Positions 46,707 to 64,000 of a DNA stretch of 64,000 nt are shown in pieces. Under the pieces are notes generated by a model. The model worked only from the letters and a program-made list of their open reading frames with translations, was not told the DNA's origin and did no database searches. Location of the stretch: NCBI GenBank assembly GCA_963701965.1, contig OY969695.1:3936001-4000000 (forward strand). The letters run 5' to 3'. The DNA comes from an uncultured Gemmatimonadales bacterium. GTDB lineage: Bacteria > Gemmatimonadota > Gemmatimonadetes > Gemmatimonadales > Gemmatimonadaceae. Positions within the stretch are counted from its first letter, which is position 1, and each line of letters begins with the position of its first letter. Both the position numbers and the translations under genes were made by a program.

Positions 46707-47086
46707 GAGCGCCGGCGCCACTCGTCCATCCGCCGTCGATCCTTTTTCGTTGGCCGGCCCTCGCGCTCGTACGCCGGCGTCGGCGACGCACGGAGCTGCG
46801 CGGCGAGCTGCGCGCGCGCTCTAGCGCTTTCCGCGGTTTCCTCGTACAGGGCCGCCGCCTCGGCCGCCGGGCCGCGTCGCTCGGATAACCCGCGGACCAG
46901 GATGACAGTCTCAAAGGGTGGCTGCCTGACGCGCACGTGGTCGCCGAGGGTCAGCGCTTTCGCGCGTTTGGCGCGCTCGCCGTTGACCTCGACGCGCCCA
47001 CTGTCGATCGCCTGGACCGCCAACGTACGGGTCTTATAGAACCGGGCGGCCCATAACCACTTGTCAAGCCTTACTTTATCGTGCAT
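46703..47086 (-). CDS. hslR: Ribosome-associated heat shock protein Hsp15 (S4 domain)
   Basis: VRLDKWLWAARFYKTR, LYEET, GRPTKKDRR. Confidence 0.92.
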   Translation of the reverse strand: MHDKVRLDKWLWAARFYKTRTLAVQAIDSGRVEVNGERAKRAKALTLGDHVRVRQPPFETVILVRGLSERRGPAAEAAALYEETAESARARAQLAAQLRASPTPAYEREGRPTKKDRRRMDEWRRRS

Positions 47087-47101
47087 GGTATATTTACCGC
47101 G

Positions 47102-48388
47102 ATGACTGCCACCGCTTCACTGCCGTCCATAGAACACGCGCTGTTCCCGTCGGCCAATCAGACGGCCGCGTTTCGCCTCAATCTCGGTCGGAGTGAGCTG
47201 CCGCGCCAACGATTGCGGCCCGACGCGGAGATCGGCGTCCTCGACATTACCAAGTGGTTTGGTGATACGTCGGGCGGCGTCCGCACGTACCTGCTCCAGA
47301 AAGCCCGGTACGTCGAAGCCCGCCCCGATCTGCGCCAGGTGCTCGTGATCCCCGGGGCGCGCGACTCGATTACGAACGGGACCGGGGTTCGCTGCTACCG
47401 CCTACGCGGGCCGCGCGTACCGACGCAGCGTCCGTATCGGTTCATGCTGGCGACGCGGTCCATCCGCCGCATCATCCATCATGAGCAGCCGTCGATCATC
47501 GAAGTCGGGAGTTGCTTCCTCGTGCCGTGGATCACGGCCCGGGCGGCCAAGCGGGCCGATGTGCCGATGGTGTTCTTCTACCACAGCAATCTGCCGCGCA
47601 GTGTCTGCGCGTTCCCGGAGAGCGCCTCCAGCTCCAAGCGCTACGCCCACGAGCTGGCGTGGAAGTATGTCCGCAAATTGGGTGGCCTGTTCGATCTGAC
47701 GATCTGCGCGTCGCGCTTCGCGGCGGCGGATCTCCAGAGCAACGGCGTCGAACGCATCGAGCGCGTGCCCCTCGGCGTCGACCTCGATCACTTCACGCCG
47801 TTCCGGCGCTATCAGGCCCAGGAGACGCGCGAAGCGCTGGGACTGCCCACGGACGCGCCCGTCGTGGCGTTCATCGGCCGCTTTGCCCGGGAAAAGGAAG
47901 TGGACGTTCTGGTGAAGGCCTGGCCGGAGATCGCACGCCGCACGGATGCGTACTTGGTCCTCGTGGGGGACGGACCCCAGCGCGAGTACCTGCAGGGGCT
48001 GGCCGAGGGCCACAAGCGCGTGCTCTGGATGCCGTACGAGAACGATCGGGAGCAGCTGGCGAACCTGCTCGCGGCCGTCGACCTGTTCGTCGCGCCCGGC
48101 TCGATCGAGACATTCGGTCTCTCGGCGCTCGAAGCGCTGGCCTCGGGGACGCCGGTGCTGTCGGCGAACCGCGGTGGCGTGTTCGAGCAGGTGGAGGGCT
48201 CGGGCGCCGGCGCCACGTTCGCAGCCGGCGACCCGGCGGCGCTGAGCGAGGCGGCGATCGAGTTGCTGCGCGCCGATCTGGCCACGGTGGGGATGCGCGG
48301 CCGGGTGTACGCCGAGCGCGAACATTCGTGGAACAGCGTCTTCGACCGCATCTTCGAGATCTACCGCGGGGTCTTGGCCACCGGTTAG
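47102..48388 (+). CDS. Glycosyltransferase family 4 (GT-B)
   Basis: SGGVRTY, GVDLDHF, GRFAREK, ETFGLSALEALASG. Confidence 0.87.
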   Translation: MTATASLPSIEHALFPSANQTAAFRLNLGRSELPRQRLRPDAEIGVLDITKWFGDTSGGVRTYLLQKARYVEARPDLRQVLVIPGARDSITNGTGVRCYRLRGPRVPTQRPYRFMLATRSIRRIIHHEQPSIIEVGSCFLVPWITARAAKRADVPMVFFYHSNLPRSVCAFPESASSSKRYAHELAWKYVRKLGGLFDLTICASRFAAADLQSNGVERIERVPLGVDLDHFTPFRRYQAQETREALGLPTDAPVVAFIGRFAREKEVDVLVKAWPEIARRTDAYLVLVGDGPQREYLQGLAEGHKRVLWMPYENDREQLANLLAAVDLFVAPGSIETFGLSALEALASGTPVLSANRGGVFEQVEGSGAGATFAAGDPAALSEAAIELLRADLATVGMRGRVYAEREHSWNSVFDRIFEIYRGVLATG

Positions 48389-48398
48389 CGGATCACCG

Positions 48399-49115
48399 GT
48401 GGCTCTTCTCGTCAGCATTCACGATGTGACGCCGGCCTTGGCCTCACGCGTCGAGACGTTGTGGGCACTCTGCCGGACCCGCGGCGTCACGCCTGCGCTA
48501 CTCGTTGTACCGAATTGGCACGGGGACTGGCCTCTCGAGCGGCATACCGACTTCATGCAGTGGGTACGGGCGTGCGCCGATGCGGGTGCCGAGATATTCC
48601 TGCACGGTGAGCGGCATGACGAGGTCGGCTCCCCACGGGGGTGGCATGATCAGTGGCGCGCATTCGGGAAGACGGCTCGGGAGGGAGAGTTCCTGACCCT
48701 CGACGCCCCGGCGGCCCGGGAACGGGTCGATCGCGGGCTGGCGCTCTTTCAACGACTGGGGTTAGACCCGGTCGGGTTCGTCCCCCCCGCTTGGCTCGCG
48801 CGCGACACCTGCGCCGGCGTCGTCGGCGCTGCTGGCCTGTGCTATTTCGAAGACGACTCGTCGGTCACACTCCTGCGCAACAACCGACGCTTGACCTCAC
48901 CGGTGGTCCGCTGGAGCGGACGTACGCCTCTCCGGGCCGCGGGATCGGTGCTCGTCGCGCAAGCGCGCTGGCGCGCGCAGCGCGCCGCGCCGATCATGCG
49001 CATCGCCCTTCATCCGGGCGATCTCGACCACCCAGCGACCGCGCGATCGGTCGAGACCGAGCTCGATCGCTGGCTGGCGGTACGCCCAGCCACGCGCTAC
49101 GGCGACCTGACCTGA
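48399..49115 (+). CDS. DUF2334 / polysaccharide deacetylase family protein
   Basis: VSIHDVTP, LHG..H, EGEF, GFVPPAW, RIALHP.D. Confidence 0.82.
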   Translation: MALLVSIHDVTPALASRVETLWALCRTRGVTPALLVVPNWHGDWPLERHTDFMQWVRACADAGAEIFLHGERHDEVGSPRGWHDQWRAFGKTAREGEFLTLDAPAARERVDRGLALFQRLGLDPVGFVPPAWLARDTCAGVVGAAGLCYFEDDSSVTLLRNNRRLTSPVVRWSGRTPLRAAGSVLVAQARWRAQRAAPIMRIALHPGDLDHPATARSVETELDRWLAVRPATRYGDLT

Positions 49116-49121
49116 CGCACC

Positions 49122-50024
49122 GTGGTGCTGAGCACGCCCGTCGCGCATCTCCTCTGCCTCGGTCTCATCGCGGTCGACAACCTCACGCGCGCGTGGCGTA
49201 TCCAGGTGCTGGCGCGTGGTCTCCACACGCGGGTCCGATTTCTCGATGCGTTCACGCTCAACGCGGCCAGCGACGCTACCGCGGCGCTGACCCCGCTCCG
49301 CGCGGGCGGCGAGCCGGTACGATTCGCCGGCATGGTGAACGCCGGACTCAACGTGTCGGACACGATCGCGTTGATCAGCGTCGAGGGGATCATCGAGTGG
49401 TTGGTCGTGATCGTCGTGGGCGCATTCCTGGGATGGCGATTCGGCGGCGAATGGTGGCGCACCCAACAGCGCAGCGTAGGACCGCATTTGCGTCACGTTT
49501 TGTCCTGGATCCTGTTGATCATCGTGGGCGGCCTCGTCGCCTGGCTCCTCTTTCGGCGATTCCTGCCCCGCGTGTCCGTGCACGTCGGCGGCACGCTGCG
49601 GGACTCGTTGCGGTTGGCGCGCCGCATGCGCCCATGGGCCGTCGCCACGACGGTGCCGCTCACCGCGATCCATATCGTGGCCCGCATCCTCGTCCTGCCG
49701 GTCGTGGTGGGGACCCTCACCAGTCCACCGGCATTCGGCGCCGTCCTGATCGGCTCGTTCGCGCTCCTCTACGGCCAGAACTTCGTCCCGACGCCCTCGG
49801 GCGCCGGCGCGGTCGACTTGGGCTTCATCAATGGCGTGGCGGGCGACGTCGGACCCGAAGCCAGCTCCTTGTTGCTCATGTGGCGCTTTTATACGACGCT
49901 GCTCGGCATCATCTTGGGAATAGTCTTTGGCGTGCCACTCTACGCCGCCAAGGTACGCCGTTTTCTCCTACGGCGGCGCGATGCGCGCCGCACCGTTTTG
50001 CGTGACGACGACGCTCCAGGCTGA
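49122..50024 (+). CDS. Lysylphosphatidylglycerol synthase TM-domain (flippase-like) protein
   Basis: RAWR, TP.RAGGEP, PTPSGAGA, WRFYT; multiple TM helices. Confidence 0.75.
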   Translation: MVLSTPVAHLLCLGLIAVDNLTRAWRIQVLARGLHTRVRFLDAFTLNAASDATAALTPLRAGGEPVRFAGMVNAGLNVSDTIALISVEGIIEWLVVIVVGAFLGWRFGGEWWRTQQRSVGPHLRHVLSWILLIIVGGLVAWLLFRRFLPRVSVHVGGTLRDSLRLARRMRPWAVATTVPLTAIHIVARILVLPVVVGTLTSPPAFGAVLIGSFALLYGQNFVPTPSGAGAVDLGFINGVAGDVGPEASSLLLMWRFYTTLLGIILGIVFGVPLYAAKVRRFLLRRRDARRTVLRDDDAPG

Positions 50025-51240
50025 CACCACCGCGACCGGCGCCGCGCCGGCGACCGCCCGGCCCCTGAGGCTGGCGCTCTTCACCGACACGTATCCGCCG
50101 CAGTTGAACGGCGTGTCGCGGACGCTGGAGCGTCTGGTGCGCGCCGTTGCCGACCGCGGCGGCGAAGCCCGCGTCTACACGACGACCGATCCCGAGGCCA
50201 CGCAGGTCGATCCGGCGATCTGGCGGCGGCCGAGTATTCCGTTCTGGGCCTACCCGCAGCTGCGGTTGGCGCCGCCGGTGGGCGGGCGCATCTACAATGA
50301 TCTCATGGCCTGGCGCCCCACGCTGCTCCACGCGGCGACGCCGTTCGGCATGGGTCTCACGGGACGGGCGTGCGCGCTGCGGTTGGGGATTCCGCTGGTG
50401 ACGTCGTACCACACGTCGTTCAGCGAATACGCGAAGTTCTATCGTCTCGGGCTCCTGAGCGGCCTGGGCTGGACGTTCTTCCGTTGGTTCCACAATACGG
50501 GGCAGCGGACGTACGTGCCGACGCGCGCCATCGCCGACGAGCTCCGGCCGTTCGGGTTCGAGCGCCTGGCCGTGTGGGGACGGGGCATCGAGACGGGCCG
50601 GTTCAATCCGCGGTTTCGGTCGACCGCCACGCGGGCGGAGCTCGGCGCGACGGACGACACGATCGTCGTGGCCTATGTCGGGCGCCTGGCCGCCGAAAAG
50701 GGCCTCGACGTCGCGCTCGACGCGATGCATCGCTTGCGGGGCGAGGACGTGATCTTCGCGCTGGCCGGCAATGGCCCCTACGCCGGGGCCTGCCGGCGCA
50801 AGGCACCGGCCGGCACGCGCTTCACCGGGCGCATCGTCGGCGAGGCGTTGAGCGCGTTCTACGCGTCGGCGGATCTCTTCATCTTTCCATCGACGACGGA
50901 CACGTTCGGCAACGTGTTGCTCGAAGCCATGGCCTCCGGTCTTCCCGTGATCGCCGCCGACGTCGGACCGACGCGCGAGCTCATGGCGCGGGGCGGGGGA
51001 GTGTTGATCCCGGGTGGCAATGGCGCCGCGCTGGCCTCGGCCATTCAGGCGCTCGCCGCGGACCCCGCGCGCCGGCGCCGGCTCGCCGCCGAAGGCATCG
51101 CCGCGGCCAGCCTATGCTCATGGGAGCACATCTTCGACGCGCTCGTCGCCGACTACCGGCGCGTGCTGGCCGAGCCCGTGATGCCGCCACCGCGGCGCGC
51201 GATCACGCGGACGACGACCCGTCCGCTGTCTCCACGCTGA
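50002..51240 (+). CDS. Glycosyltransferase family 4 (glycolipid synthase-like)
   Basis: FTDTYPPQLNGVSRT, SYHT.F..Y, VGRLAAEK, DTFGNVLLEAMASG. Confidence 0.88.
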   Translation: MTTTLQADTTATGAAPATARPLRLALFTDTYPPQLNGVSRTLERLVRAVADRGGEARVYTTTDPEATQVDPAIWRRPSIPFWAYPQLRLAPPVGGRIYNDLMAWRPTLLHAATPFGMGLTGRACALRLGIPLVTSYHTSFSEYAKFYRLGLLSGLGWTFFRWFHNTGQRTYVPTRAIADELRPFGFERLAVWGRGIETGRFNPRFRSTATRAELGATDDTIVVAYVGRLAAEKGLDVALDAMHRLRGEDVIFALAGNGPYAGACRRKAPAGTRFTGRIVGEALSAFYASADLFIFPSTTDTFGNVLLEAMASGLPVIAADVGPTRELMARGGGVLIPGGNGAALASAIQALAADPARRRRLAAEGIAAASLCSWEHIFDALVADYRRVLAEPVMPPPRRAITRTTTRPLSPR

Positions 51241-53277: not shown

Positions 53278-53388
53278 GCGGAAACCCTGTGCCGACAAGC
53301 TCGTCTCATGATACAGCCCCTCACCCCACCGCGCACCCCGCCTGTCGTGACGTCGATCAGCCCTCCCCGGGCCAAGTTGCAGCTGGCC

Positions 53389-55038
53389 ATGACCGACCCC
53401 GGCCGCATCATGCGCGGAATCTACATCGGTCGATTCATTGTCTCGGCGGCGATCTTCCTGGCTGCGCAGTTTGCCTGGGAACGGACACCGACAGAGACGG
53501 CGCGGCTGGCGTCGCTGATCTTCGCCGTCGCGATCCTGTTCACGGTCGCGTCGGCCGCCTATAGCGAAGTCGTCCACAAGGGCCCCTCCGCGCGCGCCTT
53601 TTTGTATATCCAGACGGCGTTCGACATCGCTTTCGTGACGGCGGTCGTGCACGTCACGGGCGGCAGCCAGTCGCCGTTCGCCTGGCTCTACATCCTCGTG
53701 ATCGCCGGCGCCGCGCTCCTCCTCCCCGTCGGAGCAGGGCTACTGATCGCGCTATCATGCAGCATCTGTTATTTCGTCGAGGTGCTCTGGCTGAGCCACA
53801 CGACTCCCGACGTCGCGGTGTGGCTGCAGCTCGTGGTGTTTGGCACCGTCGCCCTCGGCAGCGGCTACATTGGCTCACGCCTGCAACAGGCCGGCGCGGG
53901 CACCGCGGCCGAGTTGGTGTTCGTCCGCCTACAAGGGGAGGATATCCTGGGCGCGATCCGCAGCGGCATCATCACGATCGACAGCCGCGGCAACTTGCTC
54001 TACGCCAATCCCGCGGCCATCGAGCTGCTGGGTCTTCCGGTGCGGCGCTCGACCGCCGTGCCAATCCTGCCGCTGATCGCAGCGGCCGCGCCGCGTCTCG
54101 CGCGCGCGCTGGAAGACGCGGTGACCCGCCGATTCCGGACGACCCGCGGAGAAGACATCGTCACGCTGCGGGATCGCACATTCCCCATCGGCGTCACCAC
54201 GACCTACAGCCAGCAGTCGGATTCAGCGACGGCGACGGCGATCTTCCAGGACATCTCGGGGCAAAAGCGCCTGGAGAGCCTGCACGTCCGCGCTGGGCGG
54301 CTGGAGGCGGTGGCCGAGCTGGGCGCGTCGCTGGCGCACGAGATCAAGAATCCGCTCGCCTCGATCCGCAGCGCCGTGGAACAACTGGCGCGGATGCCGC
54401 AGGCGGACGACGACGCGCGAACGCTGGGCGCGCTCATCGTGCGCGAATCCGATCGCCTGTCACGACTCTTGACGGAATTTCTGGATTTCGCGCGCGTCCG
54501 GGTAACGTGTCTCCGTCCGGTCGACTTGGGGGCGGTGGCCACGGGCGCCGCCAGTTTGGTCTCGGCGCACCCGGACCGGGAGCCCGGCGTCACCATTTCC
54601 TGTTCCATTCCGGACGTCCCGCTCGTCATCGACGGGGACGAGGATCTGCTGCACCGCGCCGTGTTCAATCTGGTGCTGAACGCGGTGCAGGCGGCGCCGC
54701 CCAACGGCACGGTTCGAGTCGATGTGGCGCCAATCGCGGCCGATCAACTCCCCAGTGGCGTGTCATTCGACTCGGGCGCGGTCGCCTTGCGGGTGAGCGA
54801 CGACGGACCCGGGATCGCGTCCGAGGTCCGGGATCGCATGTTCGAGCCGTTCATGACGACAAAATCGGGTGGCAGTGGACTGGGATTGTCCGTGGTGCAC
54901 CGGGCGATCGAGGCGCACCGTGGGGTGGTCCTCGTCGACACCGGAGCGCTGGGCACGCGTCTTACCGTCCTGCTCCCCTACGCCCAGATCACCGACGACG
55001 TTCCGGTGCAATTTCGGGTGCCGCAGGAGACCGCGTGA
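53389..55038 (+). CDS. pilS: PilS-like membrane sensor histidine kinase; start uncertain
   Basis: TM domain with TGG..SPF..LY, PAS region, AHEIKNPL, NLVLNA, DDGPG, GSGLGL. Confidence 0.8.
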   Translation: MTDPGRIMRGIYIGRFIVSAAIFLAAQFAWERTPTETARLASLIFAVAILFTVASAAYSEVVHKGPSARAFLYIQTAFDIAFVTAVVHVTGGSQSPFAWLYILVIAGAALLLPVGAGLLIALSCSICYFVEVLWLSHTTPDVAVWLQLVVFGTVALGSGYIGSRLQQAGAGTAAELVFVRLQGEDILGAIRSGIITIDSRGNLLYANPAAIELLGLPVRRSTAVPILPLIAAAAPRLARALEDAVTRRFRTTRGEDIVTLRDRTFPIGVTTTYSQQSDSATATAIFQDISGQKRLESLHVRAGRLEAVAELGASLAHEIKNPLASIRSAVEQLARMPQADDDARTLGALIVRESDRLSRLLTEFLDFARVRVTCLRPVDLGAVATGAASLVSAHPDREPGVTISCSIPDVPLVIDGDEDLLHRAVFNLVLNAVQAAPPNGTVRVDVAPIAADQLPSGVSFDSGAVALRVSDDGPGIASEVRDRMFEPFMTTKSGGSGLGLSVVHRAIEAHRGVVLVDTGALGTRLTVLLPYAQITDDVPVQFRVPQETA

Positions 55039-56405
55039 GCGACGGGAAGCCCACCGTCCTGGTCATTGATGACGAGTCAGGGATTCTCGACTCGTTGCGC
55101 ATCCTGCTCAAGAACGAAGGCTTCACGCCGCTCACCGCGCTGGGTGGGAAGCTGGCATTGGAGCAATTGGACAGGATCAACCCGGACATCGTCTTGAGCG
55201 ATGTCCGGATGCCGGCGGTCGGCGGCGTGCAGATCTTGAGCGCCGTGCGGGCAAAGTATCCCGAGACGCCCGTCATTCTCATGACCGCGCAGGCGACCCT
55301 GCAGTCGGCGATGCAGGCCGTCAACGAGGGCGCGTTCTACTATATTCAGAAGCCATTTGGGAACGACGAGCTCGTGGCGATCCTCAAGCGGGCGGCCGAG
55401 CATCGGCGCCTACGCGTGGAGAACTCGTCGCTCAAGCGGGAGATCAAGCGCCGCGAACGCCAGACCGACGGCCGGCCCGTAGGGTCCAGCAAGGTGTGGC
55501 TCGATGTCGTTACGCTGGCTGAAACCGTCGCCGCGACCGAGTCGACCGTCCTGATTCAGGGCGAGTCGGGCACCGGCAAGGAAGTCATCGCCCGCTACAT
55601 CCACCAACTCTCGAACCGCGCCGACGCCCAGTTCGCGTCGATCAACTGCGGCGCGCTCCCCGAGAGCTTGTTGGAGAGCGAGCTGTTCGGCCACGTCAAG
55701 GGCTCGTTCACCGGCGCCGTCAAGGACAAGAGCGGGTTGTTCACCGCCGCCGCGGGAGGGACGTTTTTCCTCGACGAGGTCGGCGAGACCACGCCCGCCA
55801 CGCAGGTCAAGCTCCTCCGTGTGTTGCAGCACCGCGAGGTGATTCCGGTCGGTGCGACCGATCCCAGTCCGATCGACGTGCGTCTGCTCGCCGCCACGAA
55901 CCGCGATCTCGAGGAGGAGATCAAGCGGGGCACATTCCGGAGCGACCTGTTCTACCGGCTGAACGTGATCGCACTGCATTTGCCGCCGCTGCGCGACCGG
56001 CGGGACGACATCCCTCTCCTCGTCGAGGCGTTTCTGCACCGCGCGGCCGAGGCGCGGTCGGAAAGCCCGAAGCGTGCCAGCGAAGCGGCGCTCGAGGCCA
56101 TGCGCAGCTTCTCCTGGCCCGGGAACGTCCGCGAGCTGGAGAACGCCCTGGAGCGCGCCGTCATTCTGACGCCGGGCGACGTCATCGATGTGTCCGCGCT
56201 GCCCGACCGTGTCACCGACCGGCAAGCCGAGCCGCTTATCTCCGAACGCACCGCGACGACGCCGACGCTCGACGTAATCGAGCGGGCCTATATCATGTGG
56301 GTTCTGCAGAGTGAGGGCGGCAACAAGACACGAGCCGCCGACGTGCTCGGCATCGACCCCTCGACTCTCTACCGCAAACTCTCCCGCTTCGGCGTCGAAG
56401 CATGA
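55035..56405 (+). CDS. pilR: PilR-like sigma-54-dependent response regulator
   Basis: Receiver domain, [30 protein letters not shown], Fis-type HTH. Confidence 0.85.
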
Positions 56406-58048
56406 CGCGCCGTTGGCTCCCGGCGGCGTCGATCGCGGCGCTCGCCTCCGTTGCCGCGAGCACGGGTCTCGGGAATGGATTCGCCTACGATGATCTGCCG
56501 ATCATCGCGCGGAACGCGCCCCTGCACGACTGGCACCAGCTGGCGCATCGTTTCGTCGAGTCTTACTGGCCGCTCGCGCAGGGAGGGACACTCTACCGGC
56601 CGCTGGCGACGGCGCTGTTCACCATCGAATGGACGGCCGGCGGCGGCTCGGCTCTGCCATTTCACGTGGTGAACCTCCTGCTCTACGTTGCCGTCTGCCT
56701 GGGGGTCCTTGCGCTCGCGAGAAGCATGCTGCCCGCCGGCATCGCGCTGGGCACGGCGGCCGCGTTCGCGGTGCATCCCGTGCACGTCGAGGTCTTCGCC
56801 AACTGCGTCGGACAGTCTGAGCTCATCGTGGCGGGCGCCGTGTGCGCGGCGGGGGCGCTCTACCTGCGCCGGCGCGCCGCCGGCCAGCTCCGCAGGCGCG
56901 ACCTCGCAACGCTCGCAATCCTCTTCATCGTGGGGTTGCTGGCCAAAGAGCACGCGATCGTGTTGCCCGCGCTGCTGCTGGCGGCCGAGCTCACCGTGGT
57001 CGCCGATCCCGCGCCCGCGCGCGCGCGGGCGCGATCGCTCGTGCCGCTGGGCGTTCTGCTCGCCGGGATCGCGAGTGCCTACCTGATCCTGCGGCGGTCG
57101 GTGCTCGGCGGCCTGGTCGGCGAGAACCCGGCGTTCGCATTCCGCGACGCGATGTGGACTACGCGGTCGTGGACGATGCTGGGCGTCGTGCCCCAGTGGG
57201 TCCGGCTGCTGGTATGGCCCGCGCACCTGTCGGCCGTCTATTCGCCGCCGGGGACCGCCGTCCGCGACAGCGCCGACATTGTCGCGATGGTGGGGCTGGT
57301 CGTTCTGACCGGGGGAGCCGTGCTGGCGGTCGCGGCGCGGCGCCAGCTCCCCGTGCTGTCCTTTGGCCTCGCCTGGTTCGGGATTGCCATCTTGCCCGTG
57401 AGCAACGTCGTGGTGCGCACGGGCGTTCTCCTCGCGGAACGAACACTCTTTCTGCCGAGCGTCGGCGCGATGCTGGCCGCCGGCGCGCTGGTGCCGGTCG
57501 TCGTCAACTGGCTGCCGCGCGCTGGCGTTGCGCGGCGCGCCGAGTTGGCCGGGGCGGCGACCGGCCTGACCATGCTACTTGTCGCGGGACTCGCCCGCAG
57601 CATGGTGCGCGCCCCGGTCTGGCACGACGACTCGACGCTGTTCCGTGCCGCGACTCAGGAGGAGCCGTTGAGCTATGCCGCCCACTACGGCTACGCGGGG
57701 CTGTTGTTCAACGCGGGCCAGCGCGGATCGGGCGAGCGCGAGGCGCGTCGCGCGCTTAGCCTCTACGGCGGCGACCCACGCGTCTTCATCGACTTGGCCA
57801 CCGAGTATGCGCGCGCGGGCGCCTGCGCGCCGGCGGAGCGGCTGGCCCGCCGTGCGCTGGACATCACCTCACACCTGGTGTCGGCCCGTGTCATCCTCGC
57901 CCAATGCCGCCTCGAAGCGCGCGACTACGCGGGATTGCGTTCCGTGGCGGCCGACGGTTTGTCCGACGGCGTGCGCCCCGCCCTCTTCCGCAAGATGCTC
58001 TGGACGGCCGATAGCGGGGCGCATGCAAGCGCTCTGGCCGGCCCTTAA
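56402..58048 (+). CDS. TMTC-like GT-C glycosyltransferase with C-terminal TPR region (copy 1)
   Basis: NGFAYDD, YRPL, FHVVN, FAVHPVHVE...VG.SEL, AKE, AERTLFLPS, W.DD; TPR-like helices. Confidence 0.8.
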   Translation: MTRRWLPAASIAALASVAASTGLGNGFAYDDLPIIARNAPLHDWHQLAHRFVESYWPLAQGGTLYRPLATALFTIEWTAGGGSALPFHVVNLLLYVAVCLGVLALARSMLPAGIALGTAAAFAVHPVHVEVFANCVGQSELIVAGAVCAAGALYLRRRAAGQLRRRDLATLAILFIVGLLAKEHAIVLPALLLAAELTVVADPAPARARARSLVPLGVLLAGIASAYLILRRSVLGGLVGENPAFAFRDAMWTTRSWTMLGVVPQWVRLLVWPAHLSAVYSPPGTAVRDSADIVAMVGLVVLTGGAVLAVAARRQLPVLSFGLAWFGIAILPVSNVVVRTGVLLAERTLFLPSVGAMLAAGALVPVVVNWLPRAGVARRAELAGAATGLTMLLVAGLARSMVRAPVWHDDSTLFRAATQEEPLSYAAHYGYAGLLFNAGQRGSGEREARRALSLYGGDPRVFIDLATEYARAGACAPAERLARRALDITSHLVSARVILAQCRLEARDYAGLRSVAADGLSDGVRPALFRKMLWTADSGAHASALAGP

Positions 58049-58057
58049 TGTTCCCCC

Positions 58058-58831
58058 ATGACCGAAATCACGCGCCCGGCCGAGCACCTGACCGGACCCA
58101 CGATTCCCCGCATGCGCGGCCGGACGCCGATTCCGCGACACGCCCTGCGGCTGTCCGTGCTCATCCCGGTCTACAACGAGCGGGCGACGATCGGCGCCAT
58201 CCTCGACCAGGTCCACGCGGTCAACGTCCCGAAGGAAATCATCTGCGTCAACGATTGCTCGACGGACGGGACCCGGGAGATACTCGATCGCCTGGCGGCC
58301 GAGGGACGCATCGATCGACTGATTCACCATCCGCGCAACCAGGGAAAGGGAGCGGCCATTCGGACCGCCCTGGCGGCCAGCACGGGCAACGTGGTGATCG
58401 TGCAAGACGCCGATCTCGAATACGACCCGGCCGATTGGCCGCAGATGATGGAACCGCTCATCGACGGCGTGGCCGACGCAGTGTTCGGCTCGCGATTTCT
58501 CGGCGGACCGCATCGCGTGCTCTATTTCTGGCACTCGGTCGGGAATGCCGTCCTGACGACGTTCAGCAACATCGCGACCAATATCAACCTCACCGACATG
58601 GAGACGTGCTACAAGGCGATCCGGGGCGAGGTCGCCCGATCGCTGGTGCTCACGTCGGACCGATTCGGATTCGAGGTCGAGGTGACCGCCCGGCTCGCGC
58701 AAGCGCAGGCGCGCATCTACGAGGTACCCATCAGCTACTCGGGCAGGACGTACGCCGAAGGGAAGAAGATCGGGTGGAAGGATGGGGTGGCGGCACTGTG
58801 GCACATCGTGCGCTACAACCTGCGTTCCTGA
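58058..58831 (+). CDS. Glycosyltransferase family 2 (polyprenol-phosphate sugar synthase / DPM1-like)
   Basis: LSVLIPVYNE, NDCSTDGT, NQGKG, QDADLEY, FGSRF, TDMETCYK, FGFE.E, EVPISY. Confidence 0.9.
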   Translation: MTEITRPAEHLTGPTIPRMRGRTPIPRHALRLSVLIPVYNERATIGAILDQVHAVNVPKEIICVNDCSTDGTREILDRLAAEGRIDRLIHHPRNQGKGAAIRTALAASTGNVVIVQDADLEYDPADWPQMMEPLIDGVADAVFGSRFLGGPHRVLYFWHSVGNAVLTTFSNIATNINLTDMETCYKAIRGEVARSLVLTSDRFGFEVEVTARLAQAQARIYEVPISYSGRTYAEGKKIGWKDGVAALWHIVRYNLRS

Positions 58832-60483
58832 CGCGCCGCGTCGCGGCGCGCGCGCCCGTCGTCATCGCGCTGATCGCCGCTCTCGTCTACGCCAATGGTC
58901 TGTCGAACGGCTTCACCCAGGACGACTGGCCGCTGATTGCCCACAATCCGATCGTTCAGTCCTTCACCGGCCTGTGGCGTGCGTTCGCGCACCCGTACTG
59001 GCCCAAGGCGTGGGGCTGGGGACAATACCGGCCGGTTGCCGTTGGCTTGTTCGTGTTGCAATGGGCGGCCGCCGGCGGGTCGCCCTCGGTGTACCACGGC
59101 GTGAGCATCGTCCTGCACGTCAGCGTATGCCTGTTGCTCCGCCGAGTGCTGATGACCATGGTGCCACCCCCCGGCGCGACGATTGGCGCGGCATGGTTCG
59201 CCCTCCAGCCCGTACACGTCGAAGCCGTCGCCAGCGCCGTAGGCCAGAGCGAGCTGCTGTCGACCGCGTTCGTCCTGGCGGCCTGGCTGGCGCATTGGCG
59301 CGAAAAGCGGATCGCCATGGTCTGGTTCGCCCTGGCGCTGCTGGCCAAAGAGACGGGGATCGTCTTCTTGGGTCTCGCCATCGTGCACGACCTGATGCAG
59401 GGAGGCGCGCGCGCCCCGCTGGCCCGCCGCCGCGCCCTGTACCTCCGCTACGGAGCGGTCGTGGTCCTCTACGCGGTGGTCCTGGCGACGATCTTCTCCG
59501 ACCAACCCCTGCGGGTGGTTGCCCAGACCTGGGACGGCGCCACGGCCGGCGCGCGTCTGCTCACGATGCTGAGTGTGGCGCCAGACTACGCGCGCCTGGT
59601 GGTGATGCCGTTCGTGCTCCGCACCAACTACGAGCCCCAGGTTATCGCGCTGCAGACCGCGTTGACGCCGCCCGTCTTCTTGGGCGGCGCCTTCGTGATC
59701 GCGGTGATCATCGCGGTGATCATGACCAGGCGGCGCGCCCCGGCGATATGCTACGGCATCGCCTGGTTCGTGATGGCGGTCGCTCCCGTGGCCAACGTGT
59801 TCTTCGCCACGGGCGTCGTCCTGGCGGAACGCACCTTGTATCTGCCGACCGCTGGTGCGGCCATCGTCATCGGCGGGCTCGCGGCGCGCGCCAGGCCGCG
59901 GCTTCGGGTGGCGGCGCTGGCCACCGCCTTCGGCCTGGCGTTCGCCGTACGCGTATGGACCCGGACGCGCGTCTGGCATGATGACCTCGCGCTGACGAGA
60001 AGCGCGCTGCATGACTCGCCGCGGTCGTACAAAGCGCACCACGCGGCCGCGATGTTTCTCGCTTCGACCGGACAGTGGACCGCCGCGGCCGGTGAATACC
60101 GGCTGGCTCGGCAACTGTTCCCCCGCGATGGCGACCCATACCGCGGAGGGGCGGAGGCCGCGCTGGCGGCGCGCGACTATGAGGGAGCGGCCGCGCTGCT
60201 CGACAGCGCGCGCCGTCTGGCCCCCACGCAGATCGGTCCCTGGCTCCGGCTCGCGGACGTGCGTGCCCTGCAACGCCGCTGGCGGGAAGCCGGGGCGCTC
60301 GCCTTCGCGGCGTATGAGCTGTGCCCCGATTCCGTGCGCGCGATTCGGGTCGCGGCGACGATGGCCGTCCGCTCGGGGAACCCCGTTGCGGCGCGCACGG
60401 CGCTGCGGCGCGGACTTGCCGACCACCCCGGCAACGCGGACTTGCATCGCGCGTATATCGCGGTGCGCGACACCGGGCCGTAA
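58828..60483 (+). CDS. TMTC-like GT-C glycosyltransferase with TPR region (copy 2); start uncertain
   Basis: NGFTQDD, YRPV, FALQPVHVEAV...VGQSEL, AKE, AERTLYLP, WHDD; TPR-like helices. Confidence 0.8.
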   Translation: MTRRVAARAPVVIALIAALVYANGLSNGFTQDDWPLIAHNPIVQSFTGLWRAFAHPYWPKAWGWGQYRPVAVGLFVLQWAAAGGSPSVYHGVSIVLHVSVCLLLRRVLMTMVPPPGATIGAAWFALQPVHVEAVASAVGQSELLSTAFVLAAWLAHWREKRIAMVWFALALLAKETGIVFLGLAIVHDLMQGGARAPLARRRALYLRYGAVVVLYAVVLATIFSDQPLRVVAQTWDGATAGARLLTMLSVAPDYARLVVMPFVLRTNYEPQVIALQTALTPPVFLGGAFVIAVIIAVIMTRRRAPAICYGIAWFVMAVAPVANVFFATGVVLAERTLYLPTAGAAIVIGGLAARARPRLRVAALATAFGLAFAVRVWTRTRVWHDDLALTRSALHDSPRSYKAHHAAAMFLASTGQWTAAAGEYRLARQLFPRDGDPYRGGAEAALAARDYEGAAALLDSARRLAPTQIGPWLRLADVRALQRRWREAGALAFAAYELCPDSVRAIRVAATMAVRSGNPVAARTALRRGLADHPGNADLHRAYIAVRDTGP

Positions 60484-60515
60484 CCTGGCGAATCCATAGG
60501 GCGTCCTTTGGGGAC

Positions 60516-62291
60516 ATGCCCCCAGCCCCCACGCACCAGATCGACGGACCGGACCAGCGCTGGCGGCAGTGGGCGATCGCCAGCATTGTGCTCGTCGCTG
60601 CCCTGTGCTACGCCAACGCGCTCGCCAACGGCTACGTGCAGGACGATCAGGGCATCATTCACGACAACCCGCTCGTCCAGACCGTCACGGGACTCTGGCG
60701 GGCGTTTGCCCATCCCTACTGGCCGGAGCACAACGGCGCCGGCCAATACCGGCCCCTGGTGATCGACTCGTTCGTCATCGATCGCGGCATCCTCCATCTG
60801 GGCGCTTGGTGGATCCACCTGGTCAATATCGGCTGGCATGTCGCCGTCTCGGTCTTGGTGTGGCGCGTGCTCTCGACGATGCTGTCGGTGTCCGGCGCGT
60901 GGTTCGGGGGCCTCTGGTTCGCGCTGCATCCGGTGCACGTGGAGGCGGTCTCCAACGGCGTCGGCCGGTGCGAGTTGATGGCTACCGCATTCGTTCTGCT
61001 CGCATGGCTCGCGCATTGGGAGAAGCGTCCGGTCGCCGTCCTGTACTTCGCGGCAGCCCTCGCGTCGAAAGAGGTGGGCATCGTCTTTCTCGGTCTCGCG
61101 GCGGCCCACGATCTCATCGTCGGCAGTTCGGCGCATTGGCGCCGTCCTTTCGTCGAGCGGCGTCGATGGTACGCCGCCTATGCCGGCGTGTGCGCGGTAT
61201 ACGCCGGCGCGTTGCTCTGGGTCTTCCGCAGCAAACCGTTCGTGGTGACGGCGGTGACGTGGGATCACGCCACGATGCTCCAGCGATGGTTGACCATGCT
61301 GCGGGTGGTCCCCGAATACGCCCGGCTCTTGCTCGCTCCCATCGATCTCAAGGTCGACTACACGCCGCGGACCATCGACCTCGTCACCGGCGTGACCCCA
61401 GCAGTGGTCGTCGGGTGCGCATTGTTAGCGGCAACGCTGCTCGTCCTCGTCGCGCTGTGGCGTCGGGCGCCCGCGGTGTCCTACGGCGTCGTCTGGTTCA
61501 TCGTCGCGATCTCGCCCGTCTCGAATGTACTCTTTCCGTCGGGCGTGGTGCTGGCCGAGCGGACGCTCTACTTGCCGAGCGTCGGCGCGGCGATCATTGC
61601 GGGCTGGATCTTCGAGCGGGCGCTGGTCGTGCGGCCCCGTTTCAGCGCCGTCTTCGCGACGGTGCTGTGTGTCGCGTTCGCCTTGCGGACCTGGACGCGG
61701 ACTCCTTTCTGGCACGACAAGCGCCAATTCCTGATGCGGGAAGTGTCCGAGCAGCCGGAATCCTATCGCGCGCACTACACCGTGTGCGTGCTGCTGTCAC
61801 TCGAGCATCATTGGTCGGAGGCCGCCACCGAGTGCCAGGTGGCCCGCCGCCTGCACGGGAGCGACGTCGGCCCCTACGTCACCGGTGCCCAGGTGGCGCT
61901 CGGCGCCCGGCAGACGCTCGTCGCCGACGCCTTGCTCGACAGTGCCAAGCAACTCAGTCCGGGGGATTACGCGACCCTGTACACGCTGGCCGAGCTGCGT
62001 CGGACGCAAGGGCGGCCGCGTGAAGCGATCGCGCTCGCGTTCAGCGCCTACGAATCCGCACCCGACAGCGTGCAGGCCATCGATCAGCTGACGAGCGCCG
62101 CGCAAGCGCTGCACGACTATGTGGACGCCGAGGCCGCGTTCCGTCGCGGTCTGGCCGACCATCCGGCGAACGTGCATCTGCGCGAAGGGTACGCGGCCAT
62201 GTTGATGGATCGCGGGGATAGCGCGGCGGGGCGGCAACAACTGGCGTTAGCCCATTCTGACGTGGTCCAGACGCTCTTCTCATCCCAATGA
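60516..62291 (+). CDS. TMTC-like GT-C glycosyltransferase with TPR region (copy 3)
   Basis: NGYVQDD, YRPL, HLVN, FALHPVHVEAV..GVGR.EL, SKE, AERTLYLPS; TPR-like helices. Confidence 0.8.
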   Translation: MPPAPTHQIDGPDQRWRQWAIASIVLVAALCYANALANGYVQDDQGIIHDNPLVQTVTGLWRAFAHPYWPEHNGAGQYRPLVIDSFVIDRGILHLGAWWIHLVNIGWHVAVSVLVWRVLSTMLSVSGAWFGGLWFALHPVHVEAVSNGVGRCELMATAFVLLAWLAHWEKRPVAVLYFAAALASKEVGIVFLGLAAAHDLIVGSSAHWRRPFVERRRWYAAYAGVCAVYAGALLWVFRSKPFVVTAVTWDHATMLQRWLTMLRVVPEYARLLLAPIDLKVDYTPRTIDLVTGVTPAVVVGCALLAATLLVLVALWRRAPAVSYGVVWFIVAISPVSNVLFPSGVVLAERTLYLPSVGAAIIAGWIFERALVVRPRFSAVFATVLCVAFALRTWTRTPFWHDKRQFLMREVSEQPESYRAHYTVCVLLSLEHHWSEAATECQVARRLHGSDVGPYVTGAQVALGARQTLVADALLDSAKQLSPGDYATLYTLAELRRTQGRPREAIALAFSAYESAPDSVQAIDQLTSAAQALHDYVDAEAAFRRGLADHPANVHLREGYAAMLMDRGDSAAGRQQLALAHSDVVQTLFSSQ

Positions 62292-62426
62292 CTCGTATCG
62301 GGACACCCATCGCGCCACGCAGTCTGCAAGTCGTCGTGCAAAACACACGGCACATCGGCGGCGAGCAGGTCGGGCGACTGATGCCCAACCCATTGGAGTA
62401 TTGATAGTTAGACGGCACAGTCCGCC

Positions 62427-62443
62427 ACGGCCCGTCCGTTGCC
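62427..62443 (+). promoter_or_regulatory. Candidate sigma-54 (-24/-12) promoter of pilA
   Basis: GG(62429-30)-N10-GC(62441-42) within CGGCCCGTCCGTTGC; PilR is encoded nearby. Confidence 0.5.
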
Positions 62444-62518
62444 TATGTAGTGGCCAGATGGCAGTTGCCCGGTGACCCGCAGTCACCACTTTTCTCCCCC
62501 CTCCGGAGTAGACACGTT

Positions 62519-62935
62519 ATGAAGACGGCCAAGAAAGGTTTCACCCTCATCGAGCTTCTGATCGTCGTCGTGATCATTGGTATCCTTGCCGCGATCGCGA
62601 TTCCGAAGTTCGCCGCCACCAAGTCGAAGGCGTATACCGCTTCGATGAAGACCGATCTCCGCAACCTGGTGACGGCGCAGGAAGCGTACTTCTCGGACAA
62701 CACGTCGTACGCGACGACCCTGGCCGCGCTCTCGACGTCGTTCCACCCGTCAGCCGGTAACGTGGTTGCGGATCCGAGTGCAGCGACCACGACCGGCTGG
62801 AGCACGACGGTGACGAACACGTTCGTCCCGTCCACGTCGACCGGTCATCTCTGCGCCGTGTGGGTTGGTGGCGCGGCGTCGGCCCCAGGTGGTGTCACGG
62901 CTGACACGATCGAAGGCGCGCCGGCCTGTTTGTAG
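62519..62935 (+). CDS. pilA: Type IVa major pilin
   Basis: Prepilin leader KKG|FTLIELL, hydrophobic helix, IAIPKF, C-terminal Cys pair; GGAG RBS; own terminator. Confidence 0.9.
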   Translation: MKTAKKGFTLIELLIVVVIIGILAAIAIPKFAATKSKAYTASMKTDLRNLVTAQEAYFSDNTSYATTLAALSTSFHPSAGNVVADPSAATTTGWSTTVTNTFVPSTSTGHLCAVWVGGAASAPGGVTADTIEGAPACL

Positions 62936-63107: not shown

Positions 63108-64000
63108 ATGGCGCTCTTTGGCCGCAAGAAAACCACGATCGGACTCGATATCGGATCCGGCCTCGTCAAAGTCGCGGTCATCGAGCACGGGCGCCAGCCC
63201 GAGCTGACGAAGGTCGCCATCGTGCCGCTGTCCGCCGACGCGATCGTCAATGGCGAGGTGATGGATCCGACGATCGTCGCCGATGCGATCCGGCAGACGC
63301 TGGAGCTCGCCGGGATCAAGAAAGCCAAACACGTCGTCACGGCCGTCGGTGGCCGCGACGTGATCATCAAGAAGATTCAGATCGAACGCGTCAAGGAATC
63401 GCAAGCGCGCGAGCTGATGCGCTGGGAAGCCGAGCAGCACGTGCCCTTCGACATGGAGTCGGTGGAGCTGGATTTCCAGATCCTCGATCCGGACGCCGAG
63501 GGCCTGGAGATGACGGTGTTGCTGGTGGCGGCCAAGCGCGAGCTCGTGGAAGCGCGGCTGCGCGTGCTGACCGATGCCGGTCTCTCGCCCATGACCGTCG
63601 ATGTCGAAGCGTTCGCGCTCCACAACGCGTTCGAGGTGAACCACCCCGACGCCATGACCGGTATCGTGGCCCTGGTCAACCTGGGACACGAAGTCACCAA
63701 CATCAATATCCTCGACGATGGCGTGCCGATTCTCACCCGCGATGTCGCGGTGGGCACCCGGCGCCTGCGCGAGGATCTGCAGCGGGAGCGCGGCCTGTCG
63801 CAGGAAGAGGCCGAAGCGCTGCTGCAAGGGTTCGATCGGTCGCCGCATCTCGACGCGGTGATCGAGTCGCGCGGTGAGGAGATCGCCGTCGGGATCGAGC
63901 GCGCCGCCGCGTTCCTGGCGTCGGCCTCGCGGTCCGCCGGACAGCTCCGCGCCGTGTTCACGTGCGGCGGCGGGGCCCGGATCCCGGGGCTCACTGAAGC
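63108..64000 (+). CDS. pilM: Type IV pilus assembly protein PilM (partial; absent from the ORF track because no stop lies in the window)
   Basis: Manual translation: MALFGRKKTTIGLDIGSGLVK..., WEAEQHVPFD, VLLVAAK, DVEAFAL.NA, CGGGARIPGL. Confidence 0.93.
   Translation, partial: MALFGRKKTTIGLDIGSGLVKVAVIEHGRQPELTKVAIVPLSADAIVNGEVMDPTIVADAIRQTLELAGIKKAKHVVTAVGGRDVIIKKIQIERVKESQARELMRWEAEQHVPFDMESVELDFQILDPDAEGLEMTVLLVAAKRELVEARLRVLTDAGLSPMTVDVEAFALHNAFEVNHPDAMTGIVALVNLGHEVTNINILDDGVPILTRDVAVGTRRLREDLQRERGLSQEEAEALLQGFDRSPHLDAVIESRGEEIAVGIERAAAFLASASRSAGQLRAVFTCGGGARIPGLTE

Follow-up and report, generated by a model that had tools for sequence, protein, structure and literature searches.

What is the function of the four genes that lie between the pilus regulator gene pilR and the major pilin gene pilA in an uncultured Gemmatimonadales bacterium? 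The window analysed, a whole stretch of 64,000 nucleotides (assembly GCA_963701965.1, contig OY969695.1, positions 3,936,001 to 4,000,000), had been described in a first-pass annotation, made from the sequence alone, as carrying a candidate pilin O-glycosylation system of the eukaryotic TMTC type. The evidence gathered here indicates that, probably, the family 2 glycosyltransferase (GT2) of this cassette loads one kind of sugar on polyprenol phosphate, and the three TMTC-like paralogs (P1, P2 and P3) attach single sugars to several Ser/Thr residues of PilA. The gene set is intact, P3 combines a GT-C glycosyltransferase fold with tetratricopeptide repeats (TPRs), and its family is related to the animal TMTCs and to the Pseudomonas enzyme TfpW, with linkage to pilA across two phyla.

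All the reading frames of the cassette are open and on the + strand. P1 (56402..58048, 548 aa), recognized by its motifs as a TMTC-like GT-C protein with a short TPR tail, is followed by GT2 (58058..58831, 257 aa; PF00535 at 117.7 bits), a predicted polyprenol-phosphate sugar synthase, and by two TMTC-like GT-C/TPR proteins: P2 (58828 (CTG) or 58798 (GTG)..60483, about 551 aa; motifs and Pfam TPR) and P3 (60516..62291, 591 aa), which has the fullest TMTC motif set among the paralogs. The order first annotated, three paralogs around a GT2 between pilR and pilA, is confirmed, as is the position of the last paralog before the major pilin, with P3 ending at 62291 and pilA (62519..62935, + strand) starting at 62519. 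The latter encodes a type IVa major pilin of 131 aa in its mature form (TIGR02532 above cut-off), the proposed acceptor. The reported coupling of the first paralog to pilR is seen in the ATG of P1, which overlaps the pilR stop codon as ATGA. P2 lacks an ATG and would start either at the CTG, which shares bases with the GT2 stop codon (CTGA), or at the GTG. The GT2-to-transferase junctions of relatives (n=16) are mostly ATGA, with one other CTGA (L002).

Relationship to TMTC and TfpW enzymes

P1 is 36% identical to P2 and 33% to P3, P2 and P3 share 48% identity, and quick trees place P1 in a subfamily separate from P2/P3. The cluster is not a chance grouping, since a profile of P1–P3 finds no fourth full copy of the family in the 5.1 Mb genome. 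Named relatives of the paralogs are labelled Gemmatimonadota, and many are auto-annotated by JGI as 'protein O-mannosyl-transferase'. Every motif listed in the first-pass annotation (NG-x-x-x-DD, YRP, (H/Q)PVHVE, KE and AERxLxLP) occurs exactly once in each paralog. The TPR-like tails assigned to all three hold for P2 (TPR_14/TPR_19 above cut-off) and P3 (TPR above cut-off), but not for P1, where the TPR match falls below the cut-off.

In the motif table published for TMTCs, M2 (SHKSYRP) comprises modelled mannose contacts and M5 (DW) a modelled metal ligand (PMC7801869). Of the features given there for TMTC1–4 (CAZy GT105), P1–P3 share the two-part build, the M1 DD, the YRP half of M2, the M4 KE and the M7 ER; M7 takes the form ERxxY, with F for the Tyr in P1 and in 36 of 77 family members. 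Across 77 transmembrane (TM) domains of the family, D24 of the first-loop DD is invariant and D25 is at least 90% conserved. The motifs had been called characteristic of TMTCs, and DD, YRP, KE and ER are indeed kept. The SHKS part of M2 is absent from the paralogs (GAGQYRP, GWGQYRP and GGTLYRP), and the Asp of M5 is found only in P3, where the motif reads DY; P2 has NY and P1 has VY, and 72 of the 77 members carry D or E at this position. The short TPR tail and DUF1736 scores under the cut-off are further differences from TMTC1–4. Mannose as the transferred sugar is not supported, because the residues predicted to contact it are missing.

The AlphaFold model of P3 has a predicted local distance difference test score (pLDDT) of 93.6 (122-row alignment). 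Compared with 48,161 chains, its best folds are AglB (3waj; Z 21.3, root-mean-square deviation 5.3, 334 residues aligned), STT3B (6s7t, Z 20.2), ArnT (5f15, 20.0) and Pmt2 (6p2r, 19.0), the last three also over 324–334 residues. Read by eye, the model shows eleven likely membrane-spanning helices up to residue 400 and TPR hairpins after them; a plain hydropathy scan gave only 6–7 membrane segments. Of the comparisons proposed in the first-pass annotation, the structural one gives the GT-C fold; DUF1736 remains under its cut-off, and Foldseek with the whole P3 model returned TPR proteins only among the matches listed. No solved TMTC structure was found for comparison, PDB sequence searches returning TPRs only. 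N-glycosylation, suggested by the AglB and STT3 folds and by one N-T-S sequon in the pilin, was rejected as unlikely because the sequon is not kept among the aligned pilins listed and the sequence relatives are O-transferases.

The same folds bear on whether the acceptor could be a lipid or an envelope glycan, as in ArnT-like lipid A modification, glycolipid synthesis or polysaccharide decoration. ArnT is among the top folds of P3 (Z 20.0), glycans of other bacteria are decorated by enzyme pairs made up of a GT2 and a GT-C, and a glycolipid-type GT4/LPG-synthase cluster lies 6–9 kb upstream. This explanation is nevertheless highly improbable: AglB, STT3, ArnT and Pmt fall within about 2 Z units of each other, the fold being silent on the acceptor, and the characterized sequence relatives (TMTC and TfpW) are protein O-glycosyltransferases. 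The TPR domain and the linkage to pilins also indicate a protein.

Sequence comparison supports P1–P3 as TMTC/GT-C kin, in agreement with the first reading. A TM-only profile, built from 77 Gemmatimonadota sequences and searched among longer proteins, ranks two proteins bearing SHKSYRP, the signature of animal TMTCs, at E 6e-70 and 4e-60. The animal-type protein P0123 shares 31% identity with P3 over 478 aa (E 2e-40). This protein, like P0126 and P0128, carries SHKSYRP; all three are nameless in the database, and their assignment as TMTCs is by motifs and DUF1736. The ESM Atlas gives a eukaryotic DUF1736 cluster at 0.92, which is a lead only. The family is large, with 98,568 of 1.84 billion 50%-identity clusters matched at E<=1e-10, and full-length, uncharacterized prokaryotic TMTC homologues have already been remarked on (PMC7801869). 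The Gemmatimonadota, eukaryotic and TfpW groups each form one clade in both quick trees. A sister relation between the Gemmatimonadota clade and the eukaryotic TMTCs was considered and set aside, having support of 91 in a 77-row quick tree and not being resolved in a 36-row one. No claim on origin is made, because one of the two quick trees leaves the relation open and their eukaryotic rows were chosen by the Gemmatimonadota profile.

TfpW is described as a protein of 646 aa with 11 TM segments, an essential DDx, a C-terminal TPR and a YX6PFX7P motif, encoded directly behind pilA and glycosylating pilin Ser/Thr residues; it both polymerizes and transfers, with Thr64 and Thr66 as main sites (10.1101/2020.04.19.049825). 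The first-pass annotation had listed TfpW as a different kind of enzyme and knew of no characterized bacterial TMTC-type pathway. Neither view can be maintained. Because a profile made from Gemmatimonadota proteins alone finds TfpW-type genes, TfpW-type enzymes are, by sequence, distant members of the same family as P1–P3, and TfpW is characterized. The match in question is at locus L219 (94 bits, E 4e-28), which holds pilA, the YX6PFX7P-bearing gene, a TfpX/TfpZ-family gene above cut-off and tRNA-Thr. The protein, TfpW-type by layout and motif and not proven to be the same allele as the published TfpW, has DD, RP, GRxD, KE and ER; its in-frame starts give 622–641 aa, compared with the published 646, and its pilin has Thr at 65/67 rather than 64/66. 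Identity to P3 is 28% over 198 aa, compared with the longer match to the animal-type protein.

As far as it is described for the group IV pilin strains Pa5196 and PA7, TfpW shares with the present system a GT-C build with 11 predicted TMs, a periplasmic DDx, a C-terminal TPR, a position beside pilA and a polyprenol-phosphate-monosaccharide donor. In contrast, TfpW lies on a distant branch, separate in both trees, and forms oligomers; its donor is D-arabinofuranose (D-Araf) made via DPPR synthase and DprE1/DprE2, where a GT2 is found here. It is also a single gene downstream of pilA, whereas the three paralogs described here precede pilA and are coupled to pilSR. DPPR synthase, DprE1 and DprE2 are not in the cassette, the rest of the genome not having been searched for them, and YX6PFX7P was not seen in P1–P3 when their sequences were read by eye. 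PilO/TfpO and PglL also carry out periplasmic pilin O-glycosylation, and TfpO too adjoins pilA; unlike the system discussed here, they are described as moving a pre-built undecaprenyl-diphosphate (Und-PP) oligosaccharide en bloc (10.1101/2020.04.19.049825). P1–P3 gave no O-antigen-ligase-type match among the Pfam/NCBIfam matches listed.

The Gemmatimonadota profile matches 38 of 401 Pseudomonadaceae genomes. At 30 such loci, a full-size pilin lies directly upstream in 26, a GT2 directly downstream in 13, and YX6PFX7P is present in eight, with the motif-bearing sequences forming their own clade. A scan of 50 selected neighbours shows a DPPR-synthase-like gene at three further motif-bearing loci, two of them with DprE1/DprE2-like genes as well, and a GT2 nearby instead at two motif-bearing loci. 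A second Pseudomonadaceae branch, distinct from TfpW and arranged pilA-TMTC-like-GT2 (13 of the 30 loci, L163–L192), offers culturable hosts for a GT2-type system. No profile match was detected in 80 named Pseudomonas nadC loci or in E. coli K-12, DUF1736 has no match in 14 control genomes, and plasmids gave one weak family match only.

Linkage to the pilin locus

The family is present in 85 of 151 sampled Gemmatimonadota genomes. Neighbourhoods were surveyed at 80 loci, which come from 62 of the remaining 84 genomes; the best matches were used first and some short contigs were skipped, so that distant family members are under-sampled in this set. A pilA gene lies within 6 kb of the TMTC-like gene in 53 of the 62 genomes (54 of the 80 loci), covering 35 genera and 6 families. 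The usual order in the phylum is pilS-pilR-cassette-pilA-pilMNOPQ, and in 11 loci the TMTC-like gene is inverted but still adjacent to pilA. Pilus-linked loci (n=58) carry one TMTC-like copy in 28 cases, two in 24 and three in six. In a separate count, also over 58 loci, both a GT-C gene and the GT2 orthologue are present in 31, neither in 22, the GT-C alone in five and the GT2 alone in none.

Genomes without a family match (n=66) still carry pilM in 61 cases, and 40 of those loci were examined. Both pilR and pilA were found in 29, less than 1.2 kb apart in 21, and a GT2 orthologue in three, each time beside another GT-C. The pilR–pilA slot (L001–L080) also holds two GT-C-like families without TPR, one of about 507 aa with no Pfam match and a DDG-x-Y first loop (33 loci) and one of about 653 aa with a weak PMT_2 match (22 loci), as well as a S-adenosylmethionine (SAM) methyltransferase and a membrane protein of 1000 aa that resembles spermidine synthase. 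Three genomes have these GT-C-like families next to the same GT2 in place of the TMTC-like genes.

In Gammaproteobacteria the family occurs in at least 95 of 300 genomes. Among the 60 best-matching of these, one unpublished genome being left out, 42 have the TMTC-like gene no more than 1 kb downstream of a PF00114 pilin. The TMTC-like/pilA linkage for which a neighbourhood survey had been suggested is thus conserved in both phyla.

A general periplasmic O-glycosylation system would modify many exported proteins, including minor pilins, adhesins and Ig-like domains, with the pilin as one target or a mere neighbour. The animal TMTCs are reported to modify folded Ig-like cadherin domains (PMC11292533), family members also occur away from pilins, some near a Big_2/LVIVD protein, and any other substrate in this genome must use P1–P3, its only three copies. 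What argues against such a system, improbable here, is that gains and losses fall precisely in the interval from pilR to pilA, that adjacency to pilA survives inversion and that linkage to pilins occurs independently in Gammaproteobacteria. Both this explanation and a lipid or glycan acceptor are less likely than glycosylation of the pilin.

In L279–L281, tandem triplets of TMTC-like open frames of about 770–850 aa, from a distant family, have no pilin or GT2 detected nearby and likely act on another substrate. One genus (L072, L068, L078 and L079) has a second TMTC-like gene behind guaA; a lone pilin gene comes next in L072, with no pilin detected in the other three.

Acceptor sites, donor supply and division of labour

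Mature PilA has 28.7% Ser+Thr after residue 30. The first pilins of TMTC loci have a Ser+Thr fraction of 0.249 (n=33), compared with 0.205 (n=22) at the others, in the same direction in both large families. Thr59 lies in the alpha-beta loop, and its column holds Ser or Thr in 41 of 77 versus 4 of 42 pilins, the kin among them not being independent. In the pilin model (pLDDT 90.9), Ser88–Thr92 lie on a beta-strand, and those columns are weakly enriched. The best candidate sites would be Thr59/Thr60, followed by Ser88/Thr90/Thr92. The TfpW sites Thr64 and Thr66 appear to fall in a similar region of the chain as Thr59, and the strand position of Ser88–Thr92 recalls the strand sites reported for TMTC1–4 on folded Ig-like cadherin domains (PMC11292533). 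The present system would differ from TMTC1–4 in having a pilin instead of cadherin domains as acceptor, and a bacterial donor lipid.

The description of GT2 as DPM1-like is borne out by the PDB, where its closest relative is a dolichol-phosphate mannose synthase (5mlz, E 1.6e-15), with whose catalytic domain residues 28–250 align. Its nearest NCBIfam models (AglJ, DPhHxTase and PpgS) are all lipid-sugar synthases, a likeness to DPM1/PfDPMS, AglJ, PpgS and GtrB that points to a polyprenol-phosphate sugar synthase. Unlike DPM1, AglJ, PpgS and GtrB, GT2 is under all cut-offs, has no hydrophobic or transmembrane segment and has no GtrA partner found. With all the specific models under cut-off, GT2 is assigned no particular sugar.

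In the proposed pathway, GT2 would make a polyprenol-phosphate monosaccharide on the cytoplasmic face, and a flippase would move it across the membrane. Transfer would take place in the periplasm, at the DD/YRP/KE/ER site, to the membrane-held pilin, with the TPRs picking the substrate. Instead of a chain, the pilin would carry single sugars at several sites, all of one type: the cassette encodes only one donor synthase, a single transferase copy suffices in many relatives and the proline-rich motif of TfpW is absent. By analogy with TfpW, whose glycans are described as aiding pilin stability and blocking pilus-binding phages (bioRxiv 150227), the likely purpose would be pilus stability and shielding from such phages.

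Several observations weigh against this pathway. On the enzyme side, the acidic residue of M5, a metal ligand in the modelling, is missing from P1 and P2, the latter having Asn for Asp; Pfam TMTC_DUF1736 matches P3 alone, at 21.7 bits against a cut-off of 27, with no match in P1 or P2; and DUF1736 is matched at E<=1e-3 by only 4 of the 77 family members. As for donor supply, no GtrA flippase was found in the genome (95% complete), and the co-occurrence of GT-C and GT2 is not significant in independent pairs (6 pairs, median p 0.125), although never reversed. The Ser+Thr enrichment is likewise not significant in phylogenetically independent pairs (5 pairs, median p 0.5). Finally, 26 of the 80 Gemmatimonadota loci have no pilA within 6 kb, no pilin was seen at four loci of distant families (three of them the tandem triplets) or at three metagenome loci, and 17 of the 60 Gammaproteobacteria genomes have no pilin nearby.

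The division of labour among the paralogs is the weakest step. With the pilin still as target, P3 alone could prime, and P1 and P2 could extend a chain or act as non-catalytic heterodimer partners. P3 is the only paralog to keep both the Arg of M3 and the Asp of M5 (P1 has GQSE/AVY and P2 GQSE/TNY), and absence of the M5 acid is conserved among the closest homologues of P1. Moreover, TfpW is reported both to polymerize and to transfer (10.1101/2020.04.19.049825), and other GT-C families and methyltransferases occupy the same slot in relatives. However, P1 and P2 retain DD, YRP, KE and ER, Gln is the residue most often found at M3 across the family (48 of 77), and 28 of the 58 pilus-linked loci have a single copy. 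A scheme in which P3 primes and P1/P2 extend or assist is a credible alternative, although an unlikely one compared with single-sugar transfer by all three paralogs.

Pilin glycosylation by a GT-C/TPR enzyme using a polyprenol-phosphate sugar is already known from TfpW. The new elements here are a donor predicted to be made by a GT2, in place of D-arabinofuranose, the presence of several paralogs, and a branch whose sequences are nearer to animal TMTC. No paper linking TMTC to pilins or to TfpW was found in the literature searched; subscription papers and bioRxiv supplements, outside that scope, may bear on this. TfpW is hereby tied to the human disease-linked TMTC family. If the pilin-glycosylation pathway holds, about a third of sampled Gammaproteobacteria (95/300) and over half of Gemmatimonadota (85/151) carry an unstudied pilin-glycosylating family, often in a variable cassette at pilA, and a four-gene bacterial system would open TMTC-type catalysis, the choice of donor and the selection of sites by the TPRs to direct tests. 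More doubtful, though possible, is that pilin glycosylation is the main prokaryotic task of TMTC-type enzymes, placing GT2-supplied single sugars on folded pilin strands and loops as TMTC1–4 do on cadherins, that it is among the commonest bacterial systems of protein O-glycosylation, and that TfpW is an arabinose-using offshoot. Were this so, the working of the human enzymes could be studied in a small bacterial model.

Regulation and neighbouring genes

The cassette is preceded by a pilS-like sensor kinase gene (53347..55038, start approximate, + strand, 563 aa; gene caller, Pfam 6TM_PilS, PAS, HisKA and HATPase_c) and a gene for a pilR-like sigma-54 response regulator (55035..56405, + strand, 456 aa; Response_reg, Sigma54_activat and HTH_8). 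Because start and stop codons overlap, the cassette is likely co-transcribed with pilSR. A sigma-54 (-24/-12)-type promoter-like site was found before pilA by pattern search (62428..62442, + strand), and the same pattern lies upstream of 59 of 124 pilA genes, compared with 2.75 in shuffles; pilA therefore likely uses its own promoter. Scans for sigma-70 promoters and terminators gave results at chance level. A recent horizontal island was rejected, the GC content of the cassette being 0.66–0.72 compared with 0.67 in the genome.

Downstream of pilA, pilM (63108..64000, + strand, extending past the window end; TIGR01175 at 193 bits, cut-off 133) is the first gene of pilMNOPQ. Upstream, on the same strand, the window contains at 47081–51240 a GT4, a DUF2334 protein, an LPG-synthase-TM protein (PF03706) and another GT4, probably a separate glycolipid module. 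Its PF03706 protein is a possible, unsupported flippase candidate; PF03706 has five matches above cut-off elsewhere in the genome, unlinked to evidence on this cassette. Away from the pilus locus, the genome encodes a member of the 653-aa GT-C family (C1:2622930-2624918, - strand, 530 bits), which could share the lipid-sugar donor, and a second pilA-like gene (C1:2841355-2841774, - strand), 54% identical, with no transferase adjoining.

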